A stretch of 64,000 bases of DNA from Lachnospiraceae bacterium (GCA_024690825.1 JAILOK010000027.1:15377-79376); one strand, 5' to 3'. Counted from the stretch's first letter, positions 38,213-52,527 are shown. Made by a program: numbers and translations. Notes: a model not told the origin generated them from the sequence alone.

Positions 38213-38950
38213 TTATTGTATTTGGTTTACATAATTTTCATCAAAGGCTGCCAGTTCTTCGACGCTGTCGATCTCGGTGATCTGGTCATTCTTTACCGGA
38301 TGTATGACGAGTTTAAGCCTGTCAAGATTTTCATTGACCACATCATCCCAGTAGACATCTTCATGTCCGGGCTTTGAATACCTGTCGTCAATGGCATCCG
38401 CAAGGATCACGGAGTCCTCTTCGGTAAAATATGAAATGCCGCACATATTATAGCAGTTATCTCCGACTTTTCCCACCCGGGTGATGAATCCTTTTTCATC
38501 AAGGTCAAATACCCAGTCATCGGAGTGACCCTCTATGAACTTTCCGAAGTAACAGGAATCATTCAGATCCGCAAGAAAGATCGACGGATCTGACACAAAA
38601 AGATCGGCCTCACAGATAAATACACGCTTTCCGCGCAGGATATCCGTGACCGCCTTTATTGACGAGATATTGTTCACTATCTCGTAGTCTTTATTTTTTA
38701 CGAGGGATAAACCCGGATATTTGGATGCAAGATAGGAAAACTGCTCTCCCAGATAACCCGTGACAACATAGATCTCATCTATCCCACGGCCTCTCAGTCC
38801 GTTTATCACGGTCTCTGCCATGGGGATGCCCTTTACCCTGATCAGGGGTTTCGGGGTATTTTCGGTCAGGGGACGCATCCTTGTCCCCATTCCCGCAGCC
38901 ATCAGGACCGCAATTTCCTTATTTTTTATCTGTTCTTCCGCAACGATCAT
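38213..38950 (-). CDS. LicC/PntC-like phosphocholine/phosphonate cytidylyltransferase
   Basis: LMAAGMGTRMRPLTENTPKPL, VVTGYL, NNISS, EADL, ITEIDSVEEL; ATGA overlap with pepM. Confidence 0.88.
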   Translation of the reverse strand: MIVAEEQIKNKEIAVLMAAGMGTRMRPLTENTPKPLIRVKGIPMAETVINGLRGRGIDEIYVVTGYLGEQFSYLASKYPGLSLVKNKDYEIVNNISSIKAVTDILRGKRVFICEADLFVSDPSIFLADLNDSCYFGKFIEGHSDDWVFDLDEKGFITRVGKVGDNCYNMCGISYFTEEDSVILADAIDDRYSKPGHEDVYWDDVVNENLDRLKLVIHPVKNDQITEIDSVEELAAFDENYVNQIQ

Positions 38951-40242
38951 AACTCGTCTATCAGTGTTATTATTTCCTTGAAGGGCATCAGATGCGAATC
39001 CGCTTCCATTGCCCTGTGATTTGTAAGTATCTCTACGGCAGTCTGCTTCATGGCCGGGAATGCCGCCCTCATCAGCTGGTTTGCGTATATAACGATATTT
39101 ACGCCGTGACGGCTCAGTTCTTCTTCCGTTACGCTGTTGAAGGAAGTGGGCACCACAACGATCGGGGTTGTCTTGTCCTTTTCCCTGAACTTATCGCAGA
39201 ATTCAAAGATCTCCGCCGGATCCTTTTTGCGGCTGTGTATCATTATCCCGTCTGCGCCTGCCTCCTTAAAGGCAAAGGCACGCGTCAGGGCATCTTCCAT
39301 GCCGCGTTCCAATATCAGGGATTCGATGCGCGCGATGATCATGAAATCATCCGTAAGCTGCGCCCTCTTTCCTGCGGCTATCTTTGCCGAGAAGTTTTCT
39401 ATGGAATCCTGGGTCTGGACGACCTCGGTACCGAAAAGAGAATTCTTTTTCAGCCCCGTCTTGTCCTCTATGATGACTGCCGAAACACCCATTCTTTCCA
39501 GGGTACGGACATTATATACAAAATGCTCCGTAAGTCCGCCTGTATCACCGTCAAGGATTATGGGCTTTGTGGTCACCTCGAGGATATCGCTGATGGTACG
39601 AAGACGCGAGGTCATATCCACAAGTTCGATGTCAGGCTTTCCCCTGTCGGTGCTGTCGCACAGGGATGAAACCCACATGCCGTCGAACTGGTCGAGCTTC
39701 CCGTCCTTTTCCACTATGGTCTTTTCGGTGATAAGGCCGGTAAGTCCGCTGTGCGCCTCCATGATCTTTACTATGGGACAGATCTCGATGAGCTGTCTTA
39801 AACGCTTCCTTCTGTATTCGGGCATGGCCAGCTTTTCCTTTAACCGCCGGTCGGCCTTGGATACATTTTCATTGTAGGTATAGCCGATCTCTACAAGCTC
39901 TCCGCCGTATTTCTTCAGAGCCTCCAGACAATTCTCCCTCAGCGCCTTCTCCGGCCCGTCCTTCCAGTTATCGCCGTGGATGACTATGTCGGGCTTCAGC
40001 GTACTTATTATGCCGTCATAAGTCATGTCATCCTGAACTACCACCTCGTCGACGCCTTCAAGCGATTTATAGAGCGCTATCCTTTCATCGATCGATATCG
40101 TGGGAAATCTGTTATAGCGTATGAGCGCACTGTCGGACAGCGCCCCGATGGTGACGCTTCCAAGCTTTGCTGCTTCCTTTATTATATTCAGATGACCTTC
40201 ATGAATGATGTCAGTCGTAAAACAGGTGTATACTTTTTTCAA
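38947..40242 (-). CDS. pepM: Phosphoenolpyruvate mutase fused to an N-terminal cytidylyltransferase-like domain
   Basis: TDIIHEGH (HxGH) N-domain; diagnostic EDKTGLKKNS (EDKxxxxxNS); ARIES, DGIMIHS, YANQLMRA. Confidence 0.96.
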   Translation of the reverse strand: MKKVYTCFTTDIIHEGHLNIIKEAAKLGSVTIGALSDSALIRYNRFPTISIDERIALYKSLEGVDEVVVQDDMTYDGIISTLKPDIVIHGDNWKDGPEKALRENCLEALKKYGGELVEIGYTYNENVSKADRRLKEKLAMPEYRRKRLRQLIEICPIVKIMEAHSGLTGLITEKTIVEKDGKLDQFDGMWVSSLCDSTDRGKPDIELVDMTSRLRTISDILEVTTKPIILDGDTGGLTEHFVYNVRTLERMGVSAVIIEDKTGLKKNSLFGTEVVQTQDSIENFSAKIAAGKRAQLTDDFMIIARIESLILERGMEDALTRAFAFKEAGADGIMIHSRKKDPAEIFEFCDKFREKDKTTPIVVVPTSFNSVTEEELSRHGVNIVIYANQLMRAAFPAMKQTAVEILTNHRAMEADSHLMPFKEIITLIDEL

Positions 40243-40267
40243 AACAAAATCTCCTATGGGTGTAAGA

Positions 40268-40330
40268 GTTGTCAGGGGGACGGTTCTGTTGTCAACTTTT
40301 GTGACAGAGGGACGGTTCTGTTGTCATCTC
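40268..40330. repeat. REP-like repeat, locus 5 (two direct half-sites)
   Basis: GTCAGGGGGACGGTTCTGTTGTCAACTTTTGTGACAGAGGGACGGTTCTGTTGTCATC between the AEP transaminase and pepM. Confidence 0.85.
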
Positions 40331-40338
40331 TTACAACT

Positions 40339-41466
40339 TTAATTATATTTCAGCGGTACACTGACGCCCGCATCTTTGAGCGCTTCCTTGAAAACCTTCC
40401 AGAAATCACGGATGTCGCCTTCATCTATTGCTCCAAGAGCGCAGAGCCTGAAGGTTCCCTGTCCCGCTATCTTTCCGGGATAGATGGTAAATCCCCTTTC
40501 ATAGCAGAAGTCATGGACCTTCTCAAAATCCCAGTTCGGATCATCCGGATAGATGAGGGCAGCAACAAGTCCCGACTGGACATCGCGGCTTAAAGCCTCC
40601 TTAAAGCCAAGTTCATCAATGCCCTCCCTTATGGCATTCATGACACGGGTATGTCTCTCCCACTTTGCCTTTTCACCCTCCTCATAATACTCGATCAAAG
40701 CCTGCTTCGCGGCATAGATCGTCTGTACCGGAGGAGTGAAGTGCATCTCGCCGGTCTTTTCAAAATATTCATACTGCATATACAGATTGCAATAATAAGA
40801 GCGTTTAGGGAAATCCTTTGACTTTTCTATGATATCGCGCCTTCCTATGATGTATGAAAGGCCCGTCATGCCCATGATACCCTTCTGCGCCGAAGCCATG
40901 CAGAAATCAATGTTCTCATCATATACATTTATAGGGATCATCGCATAGGCGCTGGTGGTGTCAGTTATAAGAAATGCGCCGTATTTATGTGCCAAGTCGC
41001 CTATCTCCTTAACCGGATTTAAAAGTCCTGTCCCGGTCTCGTGATAGGTGACATATACATATCCTATATCCTTATTTTCTTTCAGTGTTTCTTCTATTTT
41101 CTGAAGATCCGGCTTTTCATCGAGCGGCTGTTTCAATTCAATATGCGGCAGATCATAGTATCTGCACACATCGCAGGCTCTTTCGGAATAAGCTCCGTTG
41201 TTTATGATAAGAGCCTTTTTATCCCTGTCGAGCAGCGAATTCAAGGCAATATCTATGCATATCGTCCCCGAACCGCAGAACAGCACAGCCGTGTATTCCT
41301 TCGTATCCGCATGAACGATGCGTACCAGATCATCTCGCATGGGTGCCATGATACCTGCAAATTCCTTTTCCCTCGGGCAGATATCCGGAACCACCTGGGC
41401 CATCTTGACGGTATCCGTCGTAGTCGACGGACCGGGATTCAGCAGTATATTCCGTTTAATGTCCAT
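40339..41466 (-). CDS. aepZ: 2-aminoethylphosphonate transaminase (AepZ/PhnW family, PLP-dependent)
   Basis: ILLNPGP, YHETGTGLLN, TDTTSAY, SAQKG, FTPPVQ, TIYPGK. Start MDIKR at 41466 after GGAGG. Confidence 0.92.
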   Translation of the reverse strand: MDIKRNILLNPGPSTTTDTVKMAQVVPDICPREKEFAGIMAPMRDDLVRIVHADTKEYTAVLFCGSGTICIDIALNSLLDRDKKALIINNGAYSERACDVCRYYDLPHIELKQPLDEKPDLQKIEETLKENKDIGYVYVTYHETGTGLLNPVKEIGDLAHKYGAFLITDTTSAYAMIPINVYDENIDFCMASAQKGIMGMTGLSYIIGRRDIIEKSKDFPKRSYYCNLYMQYEYFEKTGEMHFTPPVQTIYAAKQALIEYYEEGEKAKWERHTRVMNAIREGIDELGFKEALSRDVQSGLVAALIYPDDPNWDFEKVHDFCYERGFTIYPGKIAGQGTFRLCALGAIDEGDIRDFWKVFKEALKDAGVSVPLKYN

Positions 41467-41522
41467 TTTTTCATATCCTCCTGCACTGCCCATAAGTTTA
41501 CATCAGATACACATGTCATGTC

Positions 41523-41598: not shown

Positions 41599-43677
41599 TT
41601 ACATCTTTAAGAGTATGTCGTTGCTCCGCTGTATGAACTTCGTGAGTTCATCCGGCGAAAGCTGTTTGTTTGAAAGGAGAGCCAGATCGTAGAGCTGCTG
41701 CTCTATGAGCTTTGAGGTATCGCTTTCGGGATCCTCCATGATCTTCTGGACCAGGGGATGGCCCGCGTTCAGGATGAGCGTTTCTCCCTCTGCATCCTTG
41801 AACATATCTCCCATATCATTTCCCATGGAATACATCTTCATCATATCCTGCATCCTGCGGGATTCCTCGGAGAAGGTTATCATAGATGCAACCTTTTTGT
41901 TCTTAAGCTTGTCAAGCTTTACGACTAGCTTGTCTTTCTTGAGTGTCTTGCGCAGCTTCTTTTCAAGCTTTTCTGATTTTTCCTTAAACTCCTCTATCTC
42001 CTTCTTTGAGGTCTTTGAACGCATGGTATCCTCAACTTCGGAATCGATGCGCAGGAACCTCACTCCCTCATTCTTTGATTCGAGCTGCTGGATAAAGGGC
42101 TGGTCTATATTGTGCGTAAGCACCACAGCTGTCATCTTTGCGGATTTAAACATGTTGATGTACTGGCTCTGCTGCACGGGATCCGTCACATAGTAGACCT
42201 TCTTTTCCTTCTTTTCTTCCTCTACAGGCTCGCCGTTTTCATCGACGACCTCGCCCTCAACCTTCTCGGGAGCATCAACGCTGCCCTCTCCGGACTTGGA
42301 TTCGTCCTTGTTTTCCGTATCAACGGCTGCCGAAGCGTCCTTATTCTCCTCATCCTCATCGTCTCCCGTATCTATGGGCTTCACCTCGAGGCACTCGGGC
42401 AGTGTCGTGAACTTGTCGTAGATATCCTTGAAGAGGATATAATCATTGATCTTTTCGGCAAACTTATCGTTTCTTAAAACACCGTATTTAACGAAGGGTG
42501 AGATGTCATCCCAGTATTTCTCGTAGTTCTCCCTGTCGGTCTTGCAAAGGCCGGAGAGCTTTTCGGCGACCTTCTTTGTGATATAATCAGAGATCTTGTT
42601 CACGAAGCCGTCATTCTGCAGCGCACTCCTTGAAACATTGAGCGGCAGGTCCGGACAGTCGATGACACCCTTTAAGAGCATCAGGAATTCCGGTATAACC
42701 TCCTTGATATTGTCCGCAATAAAGACCTGATTGTTATAGAGCTTGATCACACCCTCGATGGATTCGTACTCGATGTTGATCTTCGGGAAATAAAGGATTC
42801 CCTTGAGGTTGAAGGGATAGTCCATGTTCAGATGGATCCAGAATAAGGGCTCCCTGTAATCCCTGAACACCTTGCGGTAAAACTCCTTGTACTCCTCATC
42901 TGTGCAATCCTTCGGAGTCTTTGCCCAGAGCGGATGGATATCGTTGATGGGCTTGGGCGCCTCAGGCGGGATCTCATTTCCGTCCTTGTCCTTTTTGGGC
43001 TCTTCCGGAGCCTTGTTCACATTTTTAAGATAGATCTCCGTCGGCATGAAGGAGCAGTATTTCTCCAGCACCTCGTGCACGGTGTATTCGTTGCAGTACT
43101 TGAGACAGTCGTCATTCATGTGAAGGGTGATCTTCGTTCCGACCTTTGTGCGGTCTCCGTCCTTCATCTCAAAATCAGTGCCTGCGCCCTCGCACTCCCA
43201 GTGAACGGCCGCAGCGTCCTTCTTATATGAAAGGGTATCGATCGTAACCCTGTCCGCAACCATGAATGCGGAATAAAAGCCCAGACCGAAATGCCCTATG
43301 ATCTGGTCAGCATCCGACTTGTCCTTGTATTTTTCAATAAAATCGGTAGCACCGGAAAAGGCGATCTGATTAATGTATTCGTCAACCTCGTCCATGGTCA
43401 TGCCGAGACCGTTATCGATGAAGGTGAGCGTCTTGTTCCTGTCATCACACTCCACATCGATGCGTCCTTTGAGCATCGCTCCTTCAGACCCGTCGGTCTC
43501 CTCTGCAGGAGCCTCATATTCTCCCATCATTTCCAGCTTTTTTAATTTCGTAATAGCGTCACATCCGTTGGATATCAGCTCTCTGATGAAGATATCCTGA
43601 TCGGAGTACATCCATTTTTTTATTATAGGGAAGATATTCTCACTCGATATCGAAAGCGATCCCTTTTTTTCAGCCAT
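41599..43677 (-). CDS. htpG: Hsp90 chaperone HtpG
   Basis: IFIRELISNGCDA, IDNGLGMT, IGHFGLGFYSAFMVA, KLYNNQVF, LPLNVSRSALQ. Start MAEKK at 43677. Confidence 0.96.
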   Translation of the reverse strand: MAEKKGSLSISSENIFPIIKKWMYSDQDIFIRELISNGCDAITKLKKLEMMGEYEAPAEETDGSEGAMLKGRIDVECDDRNKTLTFIDNGLGMTMDEVDEYINQIAFSGATDFIEKYKDKSDADQIIGHFGLGFYSAFMVADRVTIDTLSYKKDAAAVHWECEGAGTDFEMKDGDRTKVGTKITLHMNDDCLKYCNEYTVHEVLEKYCSFMPTEIYLKNVNKAPEEPKKDKDGNEIPPEAPKPINDIHPLWAKTPKDCTDEEYKEFYRKVFRDYREPLFWIHLNMDYPFNLKGILYFPKINIEYESIEGVIKLYNNQVFIADNIKEVIPEFLMLLKGVIDCPDLPLNVSRSALQNDGFVNKISDYITKKVAEKLSGLCKTDRENYEKYWDDISPFVKYGVLRNDKFAEKINDYILFKDIYDKFTTLPECLEVKPIDTGDDEDEENKDASAAVDTENKDESKSGEGSVDAPEKVEGEVVDENGEPVEEEKKEKKVYYVTDPVQQSQYINMFKSAKMTAVVLTHNIDQPFIQQLESKNEGVRFLRIDSEVEDTMRSKTSKKEIEEFKEKSEKLEKKLRKTLKKDKLVVKLDKLKNKKVASMITFSEESRRMQDMMKMYSMGNDMGDMFKDAEGETLILNAGHPLVQKIMEDPESDTSKLIEQQLYDLALLSNKQLSPDELTKFIQRSNDILLKM

Positions 43678-43740: not shown

Positions 43741-43803
43741 ATTTTAAGACCGGCAAAGACAAAAGTCAATAAAAAATTAGCACTCAATAAAATTGAGTGC
43801 TAA
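43741..43803 (-). promoter_or_regulatory. htpG sigmaA promoter and CIRCE (HrcA operator)
   Basis: Perfect TTAGCACTC-N9-GAGTGCTAA at 43777-43803; TTGACT(43769-64)-N17-TAAAAT(43746-41). Confidence 0.92.
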
Positions 43804-43837
43804 TAAAAACCGTATCATCCTTTGTCTTTATAACATT

Positions 43838-46585
43838 TCAGGCCATGCTGAAAAACGACCTCATCTCCAGACATCCTTCCGGCGCCTTTCTGAGCCACAG
43901 ATGATCATAGACCGTTTCGCCGTCTGCGTTTCTTTCAAGGTAATACATCATCCTGTCGATCCTCTTTACCGTCTTCCTTTCCGATTTCGGATCCGCATCA
44001 TAGTTTTCCTCAAGGTAAAGGCTGGTGCAGACAAGATAATCGTCGTCTTCGTCATACATAAGTGTCTGTGTTTCAAGCCTGAGCCTTGTATGCGGTACTT
44101 CCTCATACCGATAATAAAACACGGGCGTATCTCCATCCTCGTCCACATGATCAAGCGGATGGTCGAAATAATAATCCTTTACATGCACCATATCGAGCCA
44201 CTCTGCTTTCTCATCCGTCGAAAACAGATCGTCAACCGCCACTTCAAAGAACAGCCGGTCTTTTGGATACTCTCTGATGATATCCCCGCTCGTATCAATT
44301 TCAAGGATCTTATCGGGATCATATGAAATATCTTTTTCTCCGCGCTCGATCTGAGCACCGATCCTCTTTATGGATTCCGGAGAATAATATGCTTCAAGCC
44401 TTCGCTTCAGCGGGAGATAATAAATGTTGCAGTTTTCATCCAGGATATCGATCATGTTATCGATCAGAAACATTTCAGTTACATTTATAATTTTTTCGGT
44501 GACCTTATTTTTTTTCTTATTTTTGTACTTATTCCTGTCCTGATTTTCGCCCTCACCTTCATCTTTAATCATATACCGCTCCCTGAAAAATGCGGCTGCC
44601 CTTGCAGGATCTTCATTCAGATAATCAACAAATTCGTCGGTTACGCCACCCCTGCACATGAAGATCTTTTCAAGACGCTCTCTTTCGGTTTCAAGAGCAT
44701 ATAAATATCTTCTTTCCGTCAATGTGAATTCATTCGCTCTCTTTCTTGTCAGCGCCTTCGGCTCATCCGTATATAACATGCCGATAGAATCAAGATAAGA
44801 TGCCATGTTCTTGACTACCTGAATATAGGATAACTGCTCCGCAAGCGACGGTACCGGCGAAAAATCCGAAAAGACACTTTCACCTGATGCCTTTATTCCA
44901 TGAGTCCCGGCATACAATTCAACAGCCAGTTCATATATATTTATCAGTCTGATGCTTGAAAGATTATCCTCCCTGAATTTTGTATCGGGCTCCATTTTGC
45001 AGCCAACTTTTAATCCCGATGAACCGTCATGCGTCAGATCGGTAAGATCCAGGATCTCTTCGATATCCTTGTAAAATTTACAGGTCAGGGCTTCTTCGGA
45101 TCCGGGTTTTATCTCCCATGTATCCGGATTTCCTTCGATAAACCTGTCTTTCTCCTGAAAATAGCTGCCTTTTTTATCGCGCATAAACTTTTTATAGGTA
45201 CCGGCAACCACCTTAAAGATCTCTCCGTTTTGAAACTCTATGGCATTTTTGTCGGTCTCAAAAAGATATACGGCCGTGATCTTTTCATCTTCAAACCCGA
45301 AAACACAGTCCATGGCATGAAGCTGCTGTTTTGACTCTTTTCCGTAAGAAGTCCTGTCCCAGCACTGAAGCTCATCACAGAGCATGAGAAGATATGCGAG
45401 CGGATGCTCCTCCATCTTTAAGGGGGTCTCTTTTTCGTCTATCTCTCTTAAGGAGAACTTAAACATGCTGTTATGAAGCACGATCGCAGTCATACTGTCC
45501 ATCCAGCCGTAAAACTGCTGTTTATCATATTCGTTCTCTGCTACCCTGCCGAGGATCGTATCCGTACCGAATATCTCTATCAGTTTTCTGAAGATCAAAA
45601 CACCGCTGAAAACGGCATGATCCATATAGTAATCAAAACTTTCCGGCTCGGCGGGCTTGGTCAGCAGTATATCCCTGATATATTTTTTGGGATAATGTCT
45701 CTGCTTCATTCTCCTGTAAATATGGCAGGCCAGCACATCCGCTGCAGTCAGCGAACCGATGTCTTTGATCTTCTCATTCTCCAGAAGGTTTTTTACCTGT
45801 TCCAGGCAGGTATTTTCATCAGCTCCTGAGGCTCCCAGGATTATCTCCAGATCAAACAGTTCATCCATCTGCTGATACGAAATATAGGGACTTTTTTTGA
45901 CCACCTCTCCACGCACGCGATCAGGCTTGTCATAGGTAAAATATGTTTTTATCTGTTCAAAGGGTATCTCGAAGGGATAGCCTATGTCATGAAACAGTGA
46001 TGTCACTCCCCAGAACTGCAGGAAATTCAGCGCCGCCTCATCATCGGCAACAGCGCTTTTCCCGTAATAAGTATTCCTGTATACCTCGCGATACTTAGCG
46101 TTATTGTTATATATTGCAAGTCCGATAATAAAAACATACACCGAGTGGGAATAGTGGTCTCGATGGCTCATAACAAGAGAGCTTGCCGAATTCTCATAGT
46201 TTGAAAGCATCTCAATCAGTTTCTTTGCTCTTCCGTAATCACTGACCGAAATGATATTTATCAGGGCATAGTAGACATCAAAGGCATCCTCGCGGCTGCC
46301 GGTCTCCATGAATCCGTGGACCGCATTATAAAGACAGAGGAGGTTTTCATTCTTAAAATATTTCTGACCCTCTTCGGATTTCGTGCTGTATATAGACTTG
46401 CAGTCATCGAGAATAAAGGTCAGAGCGCTTTTTTCAAGCTCGGAAACGCCCTCAAAAGAATCCCTGTGCATTTTATGATCATGGATCCTTCTTGTGATCC
46501 TGTCGGGAGAACATGAAAATAAAAACTCATCAAGCACATCTTTACGTATTTCTTTGTCTTTTTCATCTTTCGAGATCAATCCCAT
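43838..46585 (-). CDS. Large HD-domain protein (915 aa) with possible degenerate RyR-like segment and unknown acidic C-terminus
   Basis: HRDHYSHSVYV, SLFHDIGYP, MDHAVFSG, AIVLHN and LLMLCDELQCWDR metal-ligand motifs. Start MGLISK at 46585 after GGAGG. Confidence 0.75.
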   Translation of the reverse strand: MGLISKDEKDKEIRKDVLDEFLFSCSPDRITRRIHDHKMHRDSFEGVSELEKSALTFILDDCKSIYSTKSEEGQKYFKNENLLCLYNAVHGFMETGSREDAFDVYYALINIISVSDYGRAKKLIEMLSNYENSASSLVMSHRDHYSHSVYVFIIGLAIYNNNAKYREVYRNTYYGKSAVADDEAALNFLQFWGVTSLFHDIGYPFEIPFEQIKTYFTYDKPDRVRGEVVKKSPYISYQQMDELFDLEIILGASGADENTCLEQVKNLLENEKIKDIGSLTAADVLACHIYRRMKQRHYPKKYIRDILLTKPAEPESFDYYMDHAVFSGVLIFRKLIEIFGTDTILGRVAENEYDKQQFYGWMDSMTAIVLHNSMFKFSLREIDEKETPLKMEEHPLAYLLMLCDELQCWDRTSYGKESKQQLHAMDCVFGFEDEKITAVYLFETDKNAIEFQNGEIFKVVAGTYKKFMRDKKGSYFQEKDRFIEGNPDTWEIKPGSEEALTCKFYKDIEEILDLTDLTHDGSSGLKVGCKMEPDTKFREDNLSSIRLINIYELAVELYAGTHGIKASGESVFSDFSPVPSLAEQLSYIQVVKNMASYLDSIGMLYTDEPKALTRKRANEFTLTERRYLYALETERERLEKIFMCRGGVTDEFVDYLNEDPARAAAFFRERYMIKDEGEGENQDRNKYKNKKKNKVTEKIINVTEMFLIDNMIDILDENCNIYYLPLKRRLEAYYSPESIKRIGAQIERGEKDISYDPDKILEIDTSGDIIREYPKDRLFFEVAVDDLFSTDEKAEWLDMVHVKDYYFDHPLDHVDEDGDTPVFYYRYEEVPHTRLRLETQTLMYDEDDDYLVCTSLYLEENYDADPKSERKTVKRIDRMMYYLERNADGETVYDHLWLRKAPEGCLEMRSFFSMA

Positions 46586-46610
46586 ATTTTTGTATCCTCC
46601 GTTAAAATTT

Positions 46611-47363
46611 TTATCCCTTAAGCGGAACTTCAAAAACCTTCATGTCATCAAGTCTGATGAAAAGCGCGCCGGTCTTTATTGTACTGCTGTACCCCACGGC
46701 GCAGCCTCCGTCTATATCGATAAAGTTTCCTTTTTTGTAGATCTTCAGATCATTGTACTCATAATCTCCCAGGAAATTCTGCATGATATATCCCACCGGC
46801 ACATGACCGGTGATAAAGGTGTAATCATATTTTTTGTAAATATCGCTGCCTTTTGTCTCTCCATGCCTGTATACCGAGGTCCATACTATATTCCATACCG
46901 CAGCATATTCCAGCTCATGATATTTTTTGTTCTCATATTTTGGAACATAGTAAGAGTGAGTCAGGCAGAAATCCTTACCGCCAACATTGATGGTCTTTAT
47001 CACATACCGGTCCCGCAGCCACTCAAGAAGTGCGATCCTGTCTTTTTCCTTAAGTCCTGTATATTTTTCAAAAGTTATCCTGCCGCCGTTATAATAAAGC
47101 CAAAGATCGGTATCAGCCCCGCTGCACTTATTCTTTCCGTCCGGATCAACAGAGTTTAACATCATGAATTCATGATTACCGATGAGAAGGTCCATGTTCT
47201 CATGACTCATTACATATCGAAGTATCTCTATGCCGCCTTCTCCCCTGTCCACAGCATCTCCCAGAACATACAGCATATCCGTATCCTTAAGGCCGATCCT
47301 TTTGATGCCCTCGATAAAAGCGTCATATTGTCCGTGCAGATCCGAAACCGCATATACCGACAT
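46611..47363 (-). CDS. Calcineurin-like metallophosphoesterase (lambda-PP/PphA-like Ser/Thr phosphatase family)
   Basis: SDLHG, LGDAVDRG, GNHE, THS, TGHVP, DIDGGC. Confidence 0.9.
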   Translation of the reverse strand: MSVYAVSDLHGQYDAFIEGIKRIGLKDTDMLYVLGDAVDRGEGGIEILRYVMSHENMDLLIGNHEFMMLNSVDPDGKNKCSGADTDLWLYYNGGRITFEKYTGLKEKDRIALLEWLRDRYVIKTINVGGKDFCLTHSYYVPKYENKKYHELEYAAVWNIVWTSVYRHGETKGSDIYKKYDYTFITGHVPVGYIMQNFLGDYEYNDLKIYKKGNFIDIDGGCAVGYSSTIKTGALFIRLDDMKVFEVPLKG

Positions 47364-47382
47364 ATCATTTCCTCCCTATCAA

Positions 47383-47424
47383 GGATATAATAAAAAAAGA
47401 GACAGGTCAAAAGAAACCCGTCTC
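47383..47424 (-). promoter_or_regulatory. Promoter/operator copy 1 (upstream of the phosphatase-HD unit)
   Basis: 28/30 identical to 50725-50754; 26-bp dyad GAGACAGG-N10-CCCGTCTC (47399-47424) overlapping TTGACC-N17-TATCCT. Confidence 0.7.
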
Positions 47425-47447
47425 TTAAAACCATAAAACCTGTAAGA

Positions 47448-48605
47448 TCATTTATAAAGTTCCGCTGCCTGCTTAAGCCTTAGTTTTACTTCGGTGGCAA
47501 GATCATCGGGTTTTATTATCCTGATGTTCTGACAGTACTGGACTGCCACCAACGCCATTCCGCCGAAAGTCGTTTTGCTTATCCTGACTTTGATCCATTT
47601 TTCATCCGGACTTAACTTTTCCGGAACGGATGAAAACGCTTCCTTCATATCTTCTTCTGCTGCATCGGTCATCTGAAGATTATTTTTGTCCATGCCGAAG
47701 ATATCCACCAGAGCATTGATCATGCCGTTTTTTTCATCGGTCCTGACAAGCATCGTGACCGGGATCAGCTTTCCGCCGAACATGATCGGATGAAAGGTCC
47801 TGTATGATGAACCCGTCGCAAGCTGGTTTGTCCTGTCTTTTTTTGAATTCAGGATTTCCAGGATCTTTTCAGGCACATCCTTTCTGTCCGCTTCCTTTAT
47901 TTCCACGATCCTGTCTATCCTTAAATTCACCGGAGTATCGAATTTCTCATTAAAACATGCGCAGTAATAATACCCGTTTCCCCAGACAAGCTTTAAGGGC
48001 TTAAAAAACTTCGGATACCCGCTCCTCGGATGCAGCGCGCAGTCCGTGCCGTAGTTGCAGTAGGTAATAAGGGCGATCCCCTTTGTTTTTATTATGCGGC
48101 TTAAGATCCTTATATTGTCAAGCACCCGAGCTTCGGGCTTTTTCAGGTTTGCGTCATTCGGATCGTTTGAGAGATACTTCGTGATATCGTAGGATTCCGG
48201 ACAGACGGCCATGAGCCCTTTAACGATATCTGCGATATTCTGCGTGGTGATGTAATTATAAGCCTCGATCGAATCCCTTAAAGCCAGGATCTGCTCCTTC
48301 TTAAACGGCTGTCTGTAATAAAAGTATTTTGTCTGCGACCTGCCGGTTTCAGAGCTTCTGTAGGGCACAAACGATTCTCCCGGCAGTTTGGATTTCATGA
48401 CCATCCGAACCGGCCCGTGACTGCCCAAAATTGCCAGCTCATCGAGGTTCCGGCTGACGGTCTTTTTATCAATGCCGTCTCCCGGCAGGATTGATGCGTA
48501 TTCGGAATTTATCTTTGCGGCGACCTGGGACGAAGTAAGCGGATTCTGCTCGTCACTGTGCTTTTGCAGCGTCTGCAGGATAAAGAACATATAATCTCTG
48601 GACAT
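47448..48605 (-). CDS. WYL-domain transcriptional regulator (wHTH-WYL-WCX)
   Basis: N-terminal ILQTLQKHSDEQNPLT...KKTVSRNL; WYL core KPLKLVWGNGYYY and LRIDRI; C-terminal IRIIKPDDL. Start MSRDY at 48605. Confidence 0.88.
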   Translation of the reverse strand: MSRDYMFFILQTLQKHSDEQNPLTSSQVAAKINSEYASILPGDGIDKKTVSRNLDELAILGSHGPVRMVMKSKLPGESFVPYRSSETGRSQTKYFYYRQPFKKEQILALRDSIEAYNYITTQNIADIVKGLMAVCPESYDITKYLSNDPNDANLKKPEARVLDNIRILSRIIKTKGIALITYCNYGTDCALHPRSGYPKFFKPLKLVWGNGYYYCACFNEKFDTPVNLRIDRIVEIKEADRKDVPEKILEILNSKKDRTNQLATGSSYRTFHPIMFGGKLIPVTMLVRTDEKNGMINALVDIFGMDKNNLQMTDAAEEDMKEAFSSVPEKLSPDEKWIKVRISKTTFGGMALVAVQYCQNIRIIKPDDLATEVKLRLKQAAELYK

Positions 48606-48675
48606 ATTTTTTCTCCTCAGGCGATATGATGTCACGAATCACTTCTTTCGTCAATCGATCGCCGCCGTCTGCTTA

Positions 48676-50667
48676 TTAGATACTGCCAAACCCAAAGCCT
48701 CTGCCCGCTGCGCCCCGGCCGTTCTGCATGCAGGTGCCCCTCTTTTGTCTTGCTATCGCCTTTCTTATATCGGAGGGCGTGATCTCCTGAAACTTCCGCC
48801 TGTCGTTTGCCGTAACCTTCATATCCCTCGTCCTCTGCGCCGCAAAGACGGCAGCGTTTTCCAAAAGGCTTCTGGCTTCGCGTCCGTTACCGAAATCCCT
48901 GGACTTTGAACGTTCCATGAAGTAAGCCTTTATCTCATTGTCGGCCCTGCGTCCCAGTATGAACTGCTGGTTTGCCGCAAGCCTGTGCACTATCTCCACC
49001 ATCTCATCGGGCGTGTAGGACTTGAAGTATATGGTCGAGTTGATACGGCTCTTTAATCCGGGATTGGAGTCAATGAATCTCTTCATGAGATTATCCTTTT
49101 CCTCCACATCCACTCCGCCGTAGCCTGCAAAGAGCACCAGTTTTTCGTTTCCGCGGTTTTCGATCTCGGTTATGAGGGTCGATACCGCCTCCTGCGAAAA
49201 TATGTCCCCGCCTGCAGATGAGCCGTCGCTTATCGTCAGCGAATAGGCTTCGTCGATCATTATGATATCGTTATTCTCAAAGAGGTTTTTCACCTTAGGC
49301 GCGGTGTGTCCGACATACATGCCCTTCAGGTCGGCTCCGTTTATGCAGGTGAAACGGTTTCCGGGCAGCAGATTCTCCTCCATCATCATCTGTCCCATGT
49401 ACTTTGCAACCGTGGTCTTGGCAGTTCCGGGTGCGCCCAGAAGCACATGCACATTATGGAATTCTCCCTTGTCGAGTCCGAGGTTTTCCCTTCTCCTGTA
49501 GTACTTCATCACATCAACGACCTCCCGGACTCTCTGCTTTACTTCCTCCATTCCGCAAAGACCCTTCTCGAGTTTTTTCGCGCTTGTTTCTCCTGCCGTC
49601 TTTTTGTCCACAAGATTGGCAAACCTTTTGAGCACATCAAAATCCTTTTCCTCAAGCACATCGGATCCGCTTCCCTGCTGCCTGATATAATGAAGGATCT
49701 GTCCCATCAGTATGGATTTTGCCGGATTTCTCATGCTGTTTATGCGGCCTGTGATCTTCCGGCAGGGAAAATCCTCTGCCAGGGTAAACTGCTCCCTTTC
49801 CACCCAGTTTTCAAACTGAGTGGTACGGTAATCGAGAACCTTTTCCTTATCCCATTTTCCCCGAAGATCTATGACAGCTGCGCTTTCTTCGAGCACCATC
49901 CTGGTAAATTCGGGATTTTCAAAATTGTTTGAGCTGCCATCACTGTCTTCAAACGGAAATTCATCGATCATGTCGGGTTTGATGTCGAGTACGAAAAGGT
50001 GTCTGTTTTTCCTGAAATGCATGCCGACTTCCGAACTGAAATTCGCGTAAGGGTTTCCGCAGAAGCCCGTGAAATCACCCGGATTTTCAATGACACAGAC
50101 ACTTTCCCTTGTCGCCTTATACCACCAGGGATCCCTTCTTCTTGCATTATTCTCACCCTTCATGCCAAGTCCCGCATCATCAAATACGCTGTAGAGATTT
50201 CCGCCGGTAGTGTCATTTCTGACCTCGGCTATGGTGATTATCGGGATCCTTCTGCAGTGTTCATGCCACTCTGTCACATCGTCAAGCGCAAACTCCTCCT
50301 CTTCTTCATCCGCATATTCATTTTCAAAGACATCCTCTCCGTTCTCATCCATGATCCCTCCCCCGAAAAAAAATCCGTTCTGATCGGAGGTATCCCGGGT
50401 CTCTATATCGTTATAAATGCCGGCAAGATAGGTGAGCGCCATAAATCCCAGTTCCTCATTATCGCTTCTGATCACGACAACTCTGGAGGGCTTCTTTTCA
50501 GCCTGCTCCTTAAGAGTTTCAAAAAACAGGGCACCGTTTTTCAGATCCTCCGTAAGCCTGCTTTTTTTCATTTCTTCGGGTATCTCAAGATACCTGATCA
50601 GTTCCCTTCCCCTCCCCTCAAGGAATCCGGTGCGGACATCGGGTGAAAGCAGATTTAATTTTTTCAT
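48676..50667 (-). CDS. AAA+ ATPase of the CbbX/SpoVK/EccA type with long unknown N-terminal region
   Basis: LCGMEEVKQ, Walker A GAPGTAKT, LKGMYVGHT, Walker B IMIDEAYSL, NPGLKSRI, GNGREARSL. Confidence 0.9.
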   Translation of the reverse strand: MKKLNLLSPDVRTGFLEGRGRELIRYLEIPEEMKKSRLTEDLKNGALFFETLKEQAEKKPSRVVVIRSDNEELGFMALTYLAGIYNDIETRDTSDQNGFFFGGGIMDENGEDVFENEYADEEEEEFALDDVTEWHEHCRRIPIITIAEVRNDTTGGNLYSVFDDAGLGMKGENNARRRDPWWYKATRESVCVIENPGDFTGFCGNPYANFSSEVGMHFRKNRHLFVLDIKPDMIDEFPFEDSDGSSNNFENPEFTRMVLEESAAVIDLRGKWDKEKVLDYRTTQFENWVEREQFTLAEDFPCRKITGRINSMRNPAKSILMGQILHYIRQQGSGSDVLEEKDFDVLKRFANLVDKKTAGETSAKKLEKGLCGMEEVKQRVREVVDVMKYYRRRENLGLDKGEFHNVHVLLGAPGTAKTTVAKYMGQMMMEENLLPGNRFTCINGADLKGMYVGHTAPKVKNLFENNDIIMIDEAYSLTISDGSSAGGDIFSQEAVSTLITEIENRGNEKLVLFAGYGGVDVEEKDNLMKRFIDSNPGLKSRINSTIYFKSYTPDEMVEIVHRLAANQQFILGRRADNEIKAYFMERSKSRDFGNGREARSLLENAAVFAAQRTRDMKVTANDRRKFQEITPSDIRKAIARQKRGTCMQNGRGAAGRGFGFGSI

Positions 50668-50724
50668 ACCTTACCTCCTTTTGAAATGACGCTTAAGCGT
50701 CCCGCCTGATCCTCCTTTGTTCGG

Positions 50725-50766
50725 GGATATGATAAAAAAAGACACAGGTCAAAAATGACCTATGTC
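50725..50766 (-). promoter_or_regulatory. Promoter/operator copy 2 (upstream of the AAA-WYL unit)
   Basis: GGATATGATAAAAAAAGACACAGGTCAAAA; 26-bp dyad GACACAGGTCA-AAAA-TGACCTATGTC (50741-50766) overlapping TTGACC-N17-TATCCC. Confidence 0.7.
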
Positions 50767-50795
50767 CATTTTCCGTAAATTAAATTTGTATACAG

Positions 50796-51035
50796 CTATT
50801 TTATCTCCGGCATATACCTGTCAATCCACTCCGGATCTATACCCTGATCCATCGCCTCTTTCCGATACTTCCCTGTAACCTCATCCGGTGTAGGAACATA
50901 GACTGTAGAACATCTGACTGAATTCATGAAATCATCGTTCATATTCCGTTCGCTGATCTGCAGCTGCTCGATGTATTCCTTGTAAATCCGGCATCGGTGG
51001 TATTCCAACGCCATTTCTTCAGTAATAAGGCCCAT
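50796..51035 (-). CDS. 79-aa hypothetical protein
   Basis: RBS AAGAAGAGGT before the ATG, fills an otherwise empty gap, same strand as its neighbours; no motif recognised. Confidence 0.5.
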   Translation of the reverse strand: MGLITEEMALEYHRCRIYKEYIEQLQISERNMNDDFMNSVRCSTVYVPTPDEVTGKYRKEAMDQGIDPEWIDRYMPEIK

Positions 51036-51174: not shown

Positions 51175-52527
51175 CTACTTTTTGATCAGCTTCACATTCC
51201 TGATATGGACGGTTGCCGTCGAGCCCTGTTTGCCCATATTAAATTCCACCCTTCCGTTGTCGTCGGTCTTTTTGTCCATATTGACATCAAAGGTAAAGGT
51301 CTGCCAGTCGTTTGTCAGGTCTACCGGCGTATCCGGGAAATAGCGTATCCAGTCCACATCCGGAGCCGTGATCGCAGGCTTGATCGTACGCGGCTCATCT
51401 GCCTTTGCCTCAAATGAAAATTCATAGGAGCATCCCTCTTCCATCGGCATTTTTGGCTGTACCAGCTGCACCGAATATTCCTCAGTGCCTTCGTTTGTCG
51501 ATGTTATTATTATCTCATGATCGCCGATCTTTGCCTCTCCTTCACCTCCGTTAAAGAGCAGGAATTTCCAGTTTTCATCATCGGTAAGATCTTCCTTTTC
51601 CCCAAAATCGCTGTTGTAAACCAGGTTCCCGTCAGATGCGGCTTCTCGAAGTTCAAGCACCTTTTCCGGCTTTTTGACATTTTCATCATAGGAATCCTTC
51701 TGGAACATCCTGACATAGTCCACATACATGCAGGCCCTGTCATCAAATACCGTCGTCTCGTCGGGATCTCCCGGCCAGTCGCCTCCGACAGCGACATTTA
51801 AGATCACATGGAAGGGTTGGTTAAAAGGCGCGGGATACGGCTTTTCCTCTTCTCCCTCAACGGCGGAAAACCAGTCGTCTGCCGAATGATACTCTTTGCC
51901 GTCGCAGTACCAGGTGATCTTCCCCGGCTCCCATTCGACCGCGAACACATGGTATTCATCCGCAAAATCTCCGTCAGCAAGAGAATACGAACCCTGAACC
52001 TGTTTGTGCGGTTCACCGAAATGGACCGTGCCGTAGTTCACCTTCGTGCTGTCTCCGAGCACCTCCATGATGTCTATCTCTCCGCATTTCGGCCACTGTC
52101 CGTAGTATTCCTCATCCTGCGGCATCATCCAGAAGGCCGGCAGGAAACCCTTTCCTCTCGGCACCTTTAATCTTGCCTCAAAGTATCCGTATTTCAGATC
52201 GTGTTTATTCTGCGTATTCACGCGTCCCGACTTATAGACTGCGCTGCTGCCTTCACCCTCTTTCACGGGTCTTATCACAAGCTCTCCGTCCTTTACATAC
52301 GCATAATCAGGACTTGCCACATATTCCTGCAGTTCATGGTTTACCCAGCCCTTTTCATGCACCTCGTAATTCCAGTCTTTCTCATTAAGTTTTTTTCCGT
52401 CAAATTCATCCGACCATACGAGATGATAGCCTTCGGGGATCACCATGTCCGCAGGCGCCGTCTTGCCGCAGGCAGTAAGCGCTGATACCGATATCACTGT
52501 CAGGATCAATAAACCCGTTTTTTTCAT
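51175..52527 (-). CDS. GH16 beta-1,3(-1,4)-glucanase lipoprotein with C-terminal CBM4/9-like module
   Basis: Lipobox LTAC; WSDEFDG, catalytic GEIDIME, FHVILNVAVGGDWPG; CBM-like VQLVQPKMPMEEG...Y.FSF.AKA. Confidence 0.92.
   Translation of the reverse strand: MKKTGLLILTVISVSALTACGKTAPADMVIPEGYHLVWSDEFDGKKLNEKDWNYEVHEKGWVNHELQEYVASPDYAYVKDGELVIRPVKEGEGSSAVYKSGRVNTQNKHDLKYGYFEARLKVPRGKGFLPAFWMMPQDEEYYGQWPKCGEIDIMEVLGDSTKVNYGTVHFGEPHKQVQGSYSLADGDFADEYHVFAVEWEPGKITWYCDGKEYHSADDWFSAVEGEEEKPYPAPFNQPFHVILNVAVGGDWPGDPDETTVFDDRACMYVDYVRMFQKDSYDENVKKPEKVLELREAASDGNLVYNSDFGEKEDLTDDENWKFLLFNGGEGEAKIGDHEIIITSTNEGTEEYSVQLVQPKMPMEEGCSYEFSFEAKADEPRTIKPAITAPDVDWIRYFPDTPVDLTNDWQTFTFDVNMDKKTDDNGRVEFNMGKQGSTATVHIRNVKLIKK

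Follow-up and report, generated by a model that had tools for sequence, protein, structure and literature searches.

Regulators carrying a WYL domain are co-localized with diverse defense systems, as described for BrxR (PMC9122601) and CapW (PMC9122588, PMC11662680), and CapW was reported to sense single-stranded DNA (PMC9122588, PMC11662680). Among phage proteins, those with a RyR domain bind or cleave the Thoeris signals 2'/3'cADPR (2026 preprint PMC13232231). We analyzed a block of four genes in a stretch of 64,000 nucleotides from a gut Lachnospiraceae bacterium (GCA_024690825.1, JAILOK010000027.1:15377-79376), hereafter the window, in which positions are counted from the first letter. The block lies between htpG and a GH16 beta-1,3-glucanase gene and encodes an AAA ATPase, a WYL regulator, a metallophosphatase, and a protein with HD motifs (table 1). 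A first-pass annotation had proposed these genes as a candidate WYL-inducible defense system. The comparative evidence leans, if modestly, toward another reading, in which the 7-kb block is a modular, strain-variable, and probably defensive island of two modules rather than a fixed four-gene system. The first module would be a conserved AAA-WYL pair and the second, phosphatase-HD, a cargo specific to this locus.

The closest described systems share only parts of this organization. Like BrxR and CapW, the window regulator combines a WYL domain with a WCX-like C-terminus (no helix-turn-helix [HTH] domain was detected in it), lies beside variable genes of defense type, and has a palindromic site next to its own gene. 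It differs from both in having a dedicated AAA+ ATPase as its partner, whether ClpP is present or not, an association not described in PMC9122601, PMC9122588, or PMC11662680. PafBC and the Mpa-proteasome (PDB 6sj9, 7p5x) likewise bring together a WYL regulator, an AAA+ unfoldase, and a compartmentalized protease. However, they belong to actinobacteria, their AAA protein is of another clade, and their protease is the 20S proteasome and not ClpP; here there is no Pup system. Moreover, PafBC governs a DNA-repair regulon, whereas the context of the window family is defense-like. Our literature search found no description of a WYL regulator associated with AAA/ClpP, of SpoVK/CbbX proteins in defense, or of a ClpP-IGF interaction in defense, nor of an HD-RyR effector or of HD-TIR variants of Thoeris.

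The AAA-WYL Pair and Its Genomic Context

Searching a one-genome-per-species set with the AAA protein gave 124 matching stretches. We extracted 80 loci around AAA homologs from this set and analyzed 67 of them, clustering the flanking open reading frames (ORFs) de novo. These were complemented by 85 loci around HD homologs, 80 from metagenomes and five others. A WYL gene is present within 10 kb in 43 of the 67 AAA loci, a ClpP-like gene in 15, and a member of the HD family in 12. Among the 47 AAA loci from other Lachnospiraceae that are well flanked (at least 2.5 kb on both sides), the AAA and WYL genes are immediate neighbors in 20; their distance is at most two genes in 28 loci and at most 10 kb in 34. 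This pairing spans AAA identities of 31–58% and several orientations. The locus L007, where a WYL gene (46% identical), a ClpP gene, and an AAA gene (58% identical over its full length) are found next to rpoB, indicates that the pair moves between genomic sites.

The other two genes of the block behave differently. Apart from a weak match of 70 residues in L022, the phosphatase is missing from all 67 AAA loci, and it is missing from all 85 HD loci; the latter contain a WYL gene in four cases and an AAA gene in three. The four-gene set thus does not co-occur elsewhere in the loci analyzed, and these counts speak against the proposal that the four families constitute one system. Judged from gene content, AAA-WYL is a genuine conserved pair, mainly in Lachnospiraceae. 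The HD protein is an occasional companion of the AAA protein, and the phosphatase is unique to this locus among the AAA and HD loci analyzed.

Four sets of genes recur around the AAA gene, themselves flanked by housekeeping genes: (A) an HD gene with a TIR-like gene, a PD-(D/E)XK gene (PADLOC PDC-S26), and a gene for a 460-aa protein; (B) AddA/AddB-like helicase-nuclease pairs; (C) a second AAA gene with ClpP, VWA, and MoxR-like ATPase genes; and (D) McrBC-like PDC-M26A/B genes. Recurrent neighbors match PDC-M26A/B, PDC-S26, and a GajB-like UvrD in PADLOC, and TIR_2, DUF2779, and VWA/MoxR in Pfam. The link to defense made by the first-pass annotation is therefore sustained, in that relatives of the AAA-WYL pair sit in a defense-island-like context. 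Its statement that it knows no named system with this gene combination also stands as far as PADLOC goes. On the block, PADLOC-DB v2.0.0 gave only generic AAA matches (TRIP13 1.4e-6, IetA ~5e-4) and WYL matches, and nothing for the phosphatase or the HD protein. IetAS, the source of the second AAA match, likewise associates an ATPase and a protease in a defense island. However, the match of IetA to the AAA core (E 5e-4) reflects generic AAA similarity, and IetS is subtilisin-like and not a ClpP.

Seven loci (L017, L018, L026, L028, L042, L060, and L066) carry the AAA gene, a second AAA gene (~575 aa), and genes for ClpP, a VWA protein (DUF2201), a ~500-aa protein, a MoxR-like AAA protein, and a WYL regulator. 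This larger recurrent arrangement is the AAA-WYL pair with a conflict system of the vWA-MoxR type attached to it.

No full-length AAA homolog was found on 72,556 plasmids, in phage collections, or in IMG/VR, and carriage by a phage or a plasmid was rejected on these grounds. IMG/VR contained one match to the HD protein, and there was one weak match to the phosphatase. The genes of the block are cellular.

A WYL Regulator of the BrxR and CapW Kind

On the window protein, the Pfam WYL model (PF13280) scores 17.6 bits, under its cutoff of 21.8, and the PADLOC WYL model gives 2.9e-10. PF13280 matches 24 of the 29 aligned members of the family, the best at 2.9e-11, which upholds the assignment to the WYL class. 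Pfam WCX is detected in three of the 29 members and an HTH family in only one. Compared with solved structures, the WYL profile shows weak similarity, the best relatives being PafBC (E 4.6e-5) and PafC, whose C-terminus aligns with profile positions 345–398 (E 1.2e-3). The window regulator would be of the winged HTH-WYL-WCX type and is a new member of the BrxR/CapW kind.

The short gap between the AAA and WYL genes contains a promoter-like site (table 1). At this place, strains that are ~96% identical to the window (sequencing runs X1–X3) skip 81 nt of window positions 48610–48692 and have 108 other letters instead; the region so replaced holds the promoter-like site.

A Predicted ClpP-Coupled Unfoldase

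Four motifs of the AAA protein are invariant in the family: GAPGTAKT (Walker A), IIMIDE (Walker B), YVG (the pore loop), and GNGR. We discarded SpoVK, CbbX, and EccA as identities for this protein, since its scores lie far below the NCBIfam equivalog cutoffs (150.9 against 423, 146.7 against 459, and 130 against 467 bits, respectively), though the AAA clade and the lid are common to all. No match to ClpX, ClpA, or ClpC was obtained in Pfam, NCBIfam, or the PDB, and the N-domain retrieved nothing from the PDB. This N-domain occurs in just 102 of 1.84 billion clusters at 50% identity, always at the N-terminus of ~650-aa proteins.

A hydrophobic-Gly-Phe/Leu tripeptide of the IGF type is the docking motif of ClpX and ClpA on ClpP. 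A tripeptide of the form [ILMVCFY]GF is present within the last 14 residues of 54 of the 64 full-length AAA proteins, for ~1.3% expected by chance, and is FGF in the window protein. The protease encoded in cis at the 15 ClpP-containing loci clears the NCBIfam cutoff for a ClpP subfamily (251.6 vs. 249 bits), and the model for prohead proteases does not fit it. Together, the IGF-like tail and the ClpP gene in cis suggest that the AAA protein, a substrate-threading ATPase of the classic clade, is an unfoldase coupled to ClpP. The window protein would have to use the housekeeping ClpP.

Like ClpXP and ClpCP, this predicted machine has an aromatic pore loop and a hydrophobic-Gly-Phe tripeptide, and in several loci a ClpP paralog is encoded directly downstream. 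It differs from them by an AAA module of the CbbX/SpoVK/EccA group with AAA_lid_6, by the C-terminal location of the tripeptide, and by an N-domain that resembles nothing else.

A Palindromic Element Shared by Both Units

The four genes form two units on the minus strand, AAA-WYL and phosphatase-HD, each with a shared 30-nt element in front. This arrangement, described by the first-pass annotation, is present in the ORFs and in a 28/30 repeat: the 30-mers at 47383–47412 and 50725–50754 are the sole two matches in the window, and 100 shuffles gave none. Each 30-mer corresponds to the 3' (descending) arm and the T-tract of a 12-bp hairpin, the two hairpins having predicted energies of −23.8 and −22.9 kcal/mol (z −5.4 and −4.3). 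Element 1 follows a small upstream ORF; element 2 is located 22 nt past the WYL stop codon and 34 nt ahead of the phosphatase start. A terminator scan labels both hairpins as intrinsic terminators. The element is real, yet at face value it is a terminator and not a promoter. Thus, of the proposal that each unit is preceded by the same promoter/operator, the shared element holds, its promoter nature does not at face value, and an operator role is suggested by conservation.

Eight copies of the element from four genomes align to GACATAGGGCAttttTGCCCTgTGT followed by T6-7 and TATnAT, which can also be written GACATAGGGCA-tttt-TGCCCTgTGT followed by T6-7 and TATnAT; the AAA proteins of these loci are just ~58% identical. 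In L089, whose WYL protein is 88% identical to that of the window, the same element follows the WYL gene and the next gene is not a phosphatase gene. L007 has one copy between the WYL gene and ClpP-AAA and another upstream of a further gene of the module, and the genes downstream of WYL differ there. L009 contains three copies, each followed by T6 and TATAAT. One of these, at position 2246 of that locus, sits between two genes that diverge from each other, an arrangement that requires no terminator. More distant AAA subfamilies have their own variants of the arms, around a common core GGNCA-N4-TGNCC, upstream of the AAA gene.

The arm sequence is kept beyond what mere pairing requires, which argues for recognition by a protein. 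This conservation at ~58% AAA identity, combined with the L009 copy in a divergent promoter region, makes it probable that the element is also an operator. It probably acts both as a terminator and as an operator over the −35 region, with TATNAT as the −10 box. The WYL regulator could be a repressor acting by occlusion, or an activator in the manner of PafBC. PafBC-dependent promoters are not known to have a −35 box, and no recognizable −35 box is found here either.

Two other interpretations of the element were set aside. A sigma-70 promoter (TTGACC-17-TATCCT, 9 of 12 matches) is weak, a better TATNAT lying only 12 nt from TTGACC, and its spacing is not kept in L089. A role similar to integron attC sites does not fit simple 28-nt hairpins with no integrase.

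Other repeats were noticed around the AAA gene. The 5' leader of the window gene contains, right before the ribosome-binding site, a perfect 14-nt palindrome, GACGCTTAAGCGTC (50688–50701, minus strand), with a 16/19 inverted match at 46617–46635, where the phosphatase gene ends (repeat I8). In L037, L041, L062, and L070, a different conserved repeat, TATAATACGTGTTATAATACGTATTATA, is located ~45–180 nt upstream of the AAA gene; no WYL gene was detected within these contigs, and three of them carry McrBC-like PDC-M26 genes. This repeat suggests a different regulator for that AAA subfamily.

The similarity to PafBC also raises the alternative of a stress-response module that is not immune. According to it, WYL and AAA/ClpP would form a proteolytic DNA-damage or stress regulon comparable to PafBC/Mpa, the phosphatase and HD genes would be unrelated neighbors, and the shared element would be two terminators only. 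PafBC and PafC are indeed the best PDB relatives of the WYL profile, a protease gene lies in cis to the AAA gene in 15 loci, the element has the shape of a terminator and its mismatches are compatible with G-U pairing, and many recurrent flanking genes are housekeeping. A stress regulon is harder to reconcile with a family that is rare and patchy, as seen from the 102 clusters and 124 stretches, and that occupies different chromosomal sites among neighbors enriched in nuclease, TIR, and McrBC-type genes. Nor does it account for hairpin arms conserved at 58% protein identity, or for a copy in a divergent promoter region. We consider this alternative unlikely, though it deserves more weight than the others discussed below.

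The Phosphatase and the HD Protein

The phosphatase scores 45.5 bits with Pfam Metallophos, for a cutoff of 21.5, and its best match is PHROG_246, a NinI-like Ser/Thr phosphatase (4.8e-35). Its sequence points to a calcineurin-like metallophosphoesterase of the lambda NinI/PrpA/ApaH type, with which it shares all catalytic motifs, DxH...GDxxDRG, GNHE, and GH being intact. It differs from ApaH and PrpA/B in scoring below their NCBIfam equivalog cutoffs; candidate substrates are a phosphoprotein or a dinucleoside polyphosphate.

The HD gene starts 25 nt past the phosphatase stop codon. Its product has no match of its own in Pfam, NCBIfam, PADLOC, PHROGs, or the PDB, and PDB sequence and profile searches were empty or spurious. 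The motifs RDHYSHS, FHDIGY, MDHA, LHNS, and LCDELQ are invariant in an alignment of 32 sequences, as are the residues H144, H147, H199-D200, D322-H323, H371, and D404. Scanning these relatives at E up to 1 detected Pfam HD (PF01966) in seven (best 2.9e-5) and the RyR domain (PF02026) in eight, two of them above the Pfam cutoff, at residues ~560–640. The AAA, WYL, and phosphatase calls of the first-pass annotation are upheld; for the fourth protein, the call stands as a set of HD-type metal-binding motifs. AlphaFold2 models were confident, with a predicted local distance difference test (pLDDT) score of 84.1 for the whole protein and 83.5 for a 346-aa core.

The window protein belongs to a long branch of this family (seven loci, proteins of more than 850 aa), in which no locus has a TIR neighbor. 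The RyR hallmark EHxRW is degraded to ETERE, and an extra beta-rich domain occupies its C-terminus (~residues 720–915). The closest full-length homologs, 45–46% identical, stand alone; a 51% identical homolog has a WYL gene after it, 29% identical to that of the window.

In the wider family, one of two TIR families is encoded within three same-strand genes downstream of HD in 27 of the 59 loci with at least 2 kb of downstream sequence, and directly next to it in 18. One of them, the c19 family, scores 27.5 bits, just below the Pfam cutoff of 28. The usual partner of the HD family is therefore a TIR protein and not a phosphatase. These TIR neighbors and the RyR domain are reminiscent of Thoeris, in which a TIR protein produces a signal that activates an effector. 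The window HD protein departs from it in having no TIR neighbor, lost RyR hallmarks, an extra C-terminal domain, and no PADLOC Thoeris match.

The HD-RyR family comprises more than 2,000 proteins of ~650 aa from Clostridia, in which a RyR domain at the C-terminus accompanies the HD domain (examples are L090, L098, L109, L117, L121, L130, L155, and L168; in loci with full flanks the HD gene begins at ~10001). The TIR-like gene is typically next, often together with a PD-(D/E)XK gene (PADLOC PDC-S26) and the gene of the 460-aa protein, which is RyR-like by eye. From its gene content, this canonical HD-RyR/TIR operon looks like an undescribed Thoeris-like effector system.

Two further loci of the HD family were noted. 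In L001 (13090–15080), a 45% identical HD homolog adjoins genes for an AAA_15/AAA_21 ATPase and a DUF3226 protein, which look like a defense gene pair. In L003/L004, a 675-aa HD-family gene shares its island with sortase-like genes and with genes for two serine recombinases, a TIR_2 protein, and a 1036-aa leucine-rich-repeat protein; this island looks like defense cargo borne by a mobile element.

Strain Variation between htpG and the GH16 Gene

Gut metagenome runs show that the content of this site varies. In runs X1 and X2, from a second study, the same four genes are found in the same order at ~96% identity, one X2 contig reaching from the HD N-terminus to the WYL gene, with the phosphatase gene in between. 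Run X9, a gut metagenome, is different. Its htpG-side contig follows the window up to 43821 with five mismatches in 445 nt, including the terminator past the HD gene, and its GH16-side contig follows it from 50784 with ~12 mismatches in 780 nt, including the small ORF upstream of element 1. The latter contig continues 378 nt further left into sequence unlike the window. HD sequence was not found in X9, the depth at 43903–45106 being 0 even at 80% likeness. For AAA, WYL, and the phosphatase, X9 has only copies 89–91% identical to those of the window, on separate contigs of fragmentary assemblies, and after WYL comes another gene, with an N-terminus that is PcfJ-like by eye. The variable segment, 43822–50783, coincides with the four-gene block. 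The content of the htpG site, where the first-pass annotation suggested looking for a patchy distribution, thus varies between strains.

These data bear on the integrated system it had proposed, with an HD protein making or degrading a nucleotide signal, a phosphatase to reset that signal, and an ATPase to remodel the complex, all under WYL control. The genes are contiguous, on one strand, and share one cis element, they remain together in X1 and X2, and the segment variable in X9 matches the block almost exactly. Yet the phosphatase is missing from all AAA and HD loci analyzed, the nearest HD homologs stand alone, X9 has three of the genes but not this HD gene and has another gene after WYL, and no PADLOC model covers the set. 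The proposed roles have no comparative backing, the ATPase looking like a ClpP-coupled unfoldase. We regard such a four-component system as improbable.

The block might also be the cargo or regulatory region of an integrative or conjugative element, with the palindromes as cassette boundaries or recombination sites. PcfJ-family genes, a family of conjugative plasmids, adjoin WYL or AAA in L007, L008, L014, L048, and L057, and the gene after WYL in L089 is PcfJ-like, by eye only. The block is an indel between strains, and the three palindromes of L009 separate genes or short gene groups. Conversely, the block and its immediate surroundings contain no integrase, relaxase, or tRNA gene, the block is not bounded by long direct repeats, no recombinase appears among the top 25 of the 128 Pfam families of recurrent neighbors, no full-length homologs occur on the plasmids searched, and the element has no attC features. 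A mobile element of this kind seems to us as improbable as the four-component system.

A Model of Two Modules

The two-module island could function as follows. A WYL dimer would bind the palindrome core GGNCA-N4-TGNCC, spanning the −35 region ahead of the TATNAT box, and the same hairpin would also terminate the unit ahead of it. Like other WYL regulators, the WYL protein would sense a ligand, either a nucleic acid or a nucleotide, and would then turn both units on. The C-terminal [ILMCY]-G-F tail of the AAA protein would dock ClpP, either the cis paralog in other loci or the housekeeping enzyme here, and AAA/ClpP would degrade a specific target, which may be the regulator itself, some inhibitor, or a protein of a phage. 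The HD protein, a putative stand-alone offshoot of the large HD-RyR family, would be the effector through its predicted phosphohydrolase activity, and the phosphatase an accessory. What is observed comprises the genes with their motifs, the shared element, the counts of co-occurrence, and the variation between strains; we infer DNA binding, ClpP coupling, induction, and any antiphage role.

Several observations weigh against this model. Concerning the pair, 13 of the 47 well-flanked AAA loci have no WYL gene within 10 kb, and the syntenic loci L019–L021 and L029, among which gene order is conserved, have the AAA gene without WYL. All the features expected of an ordinary intrinsic terminator are present in the element. 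Its three arm mismatches, found in both window copies and in L089, can form G-U pairs on the sense strand, and this points to selection on an RNA hairpin. Furthermore, the TATNAT box lies just 9–13 nt past the TGNCC arm, so that there is no canonical −35/−10 pair, and in L011–L014 the palindrome precedes the AAA gene alone and not the nearby HD operon. As for the proteins, the invariant Walker A motif carries Ala in place of the usual last Gly, the IGF-like motif is on a C-terminal tail when it is on an internal loop in ClpX and ClpA, and the window block contains no ClpP gene. Foldseek comparisons of the HD models with the PDB and BFVD gave nothing below E 0.06 and no TM-score above ~0.2 in large alignments, so that the fold offered no lead to a function. 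Finally, the runs matching the sequence are DNA gut metagenomes only, with no RNA run among them.

Flanking Genes and Other Features

The small ORF that separates the first palindrome from the GH16 gene (50796–51035, minus strand) encodes 79 aa and is a candidate gene; it had no match in any library scanned. HtpG contains a long acidic low-complexity insert (~residues 440–500 of the 703-aa ORF), where solved HtpG/Hsp90 chains have no alignment. Beyond htpG, the genes at 38947–41493 (minus strand) appear by eye to encode a cytidylyltransferase fused to a phosphoenolpyruvate (PEP)-mutase-like domain and an aminotransferase, which would correspond to a phosphonate-type pathway. Scanning the block for Rfam families and tRNAs gave no match.

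Table 1. Features of the Block and Its Flanks, in Window Positions
Feature	Position	Strand	Length	Description
AAA gene	48676-50667	minus	663 aa	Pfam AAA 1e-12 and AAA_lid_6 2e-8, within residues 360-640 only
AAA protein, parts				N-domain, residues 1-360 (family-specific); AAA module of the CbbX/SpoVK/EccA clade; C-terminal tail ...GFGFGSI
WYL gene	47448-48605	minus	385 aa	ATG preceded by ribosome-binding site GAGGAG, real start
Metallophosphatase gene	46611-47363	minus	250 aa	Pfam Metallophos 1.5e-11
HD gene	43838-46585	minus	915 aa	ATG preceded by ribosome-binding site GGAGG, real start
Element 1	50740-50767	minus		GGACATAGGTCA-tttt-TGACCTGTGTCT, then T7 and TATCAT; 74 nt ahead of the AAA start
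Element 2	47397-47426	minus		AAGAGACGGGTTTC-tttt-GACCTGTCTCTT, then T-tract and TATTAT
Promoter-like site	48654-48626			Extended -10; in the 70-nt gap between the AAA and WYL genes
Intrinsic terminator	43776-43804	minus		Past the HD gene; 13-bp stem and T-tract; unrelated to the shared element
htpG	41599-43677	minus		Flank; E 3.9e-66 to E. coli HtpG
GH16 beta-1,3-glucanase gene	51175-52527			Other flank; E 6.7e-53

Implications for Bacterial Immunity

WYL-controlled defense islands are already known, but such a regulator is not known to have an AAA+/ClpP partner dedicated to it. Should the ATPase indeed feed ClpP, it would represent a new class of adaptor-free Clp unfoldases and would bring proteolysis into the way immunity is controlled or executed in abundant, hard-to-culture Firmicutes of the gut and rumen. 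The conserved 28-bp palindrome offers an immediate handle on regulation. The HD-RyR family, traced through the fourth gene, is relevant beyond this window: because phage RyR proteins bind or cleave Thoeris signals (PMC13232231) and TIR genes are its neighbors, it is a concrete candidate for a new signal-reading effector on the host side. Taken jointly, these elements might describe a WYL regulator and a new class of ClpP-coupled unfoldases acting as a portable, proteolysis-based control or effector module for varied defense cargo in Lachnospiraceae, together with a branch of the HD-RyR family, whose canonical members would be Thoeris-like effectors that read, through a host RyR domain, cADPR made by TIR proteins, a combination that we put forward as tentative and, as a whole, rather doubtful.

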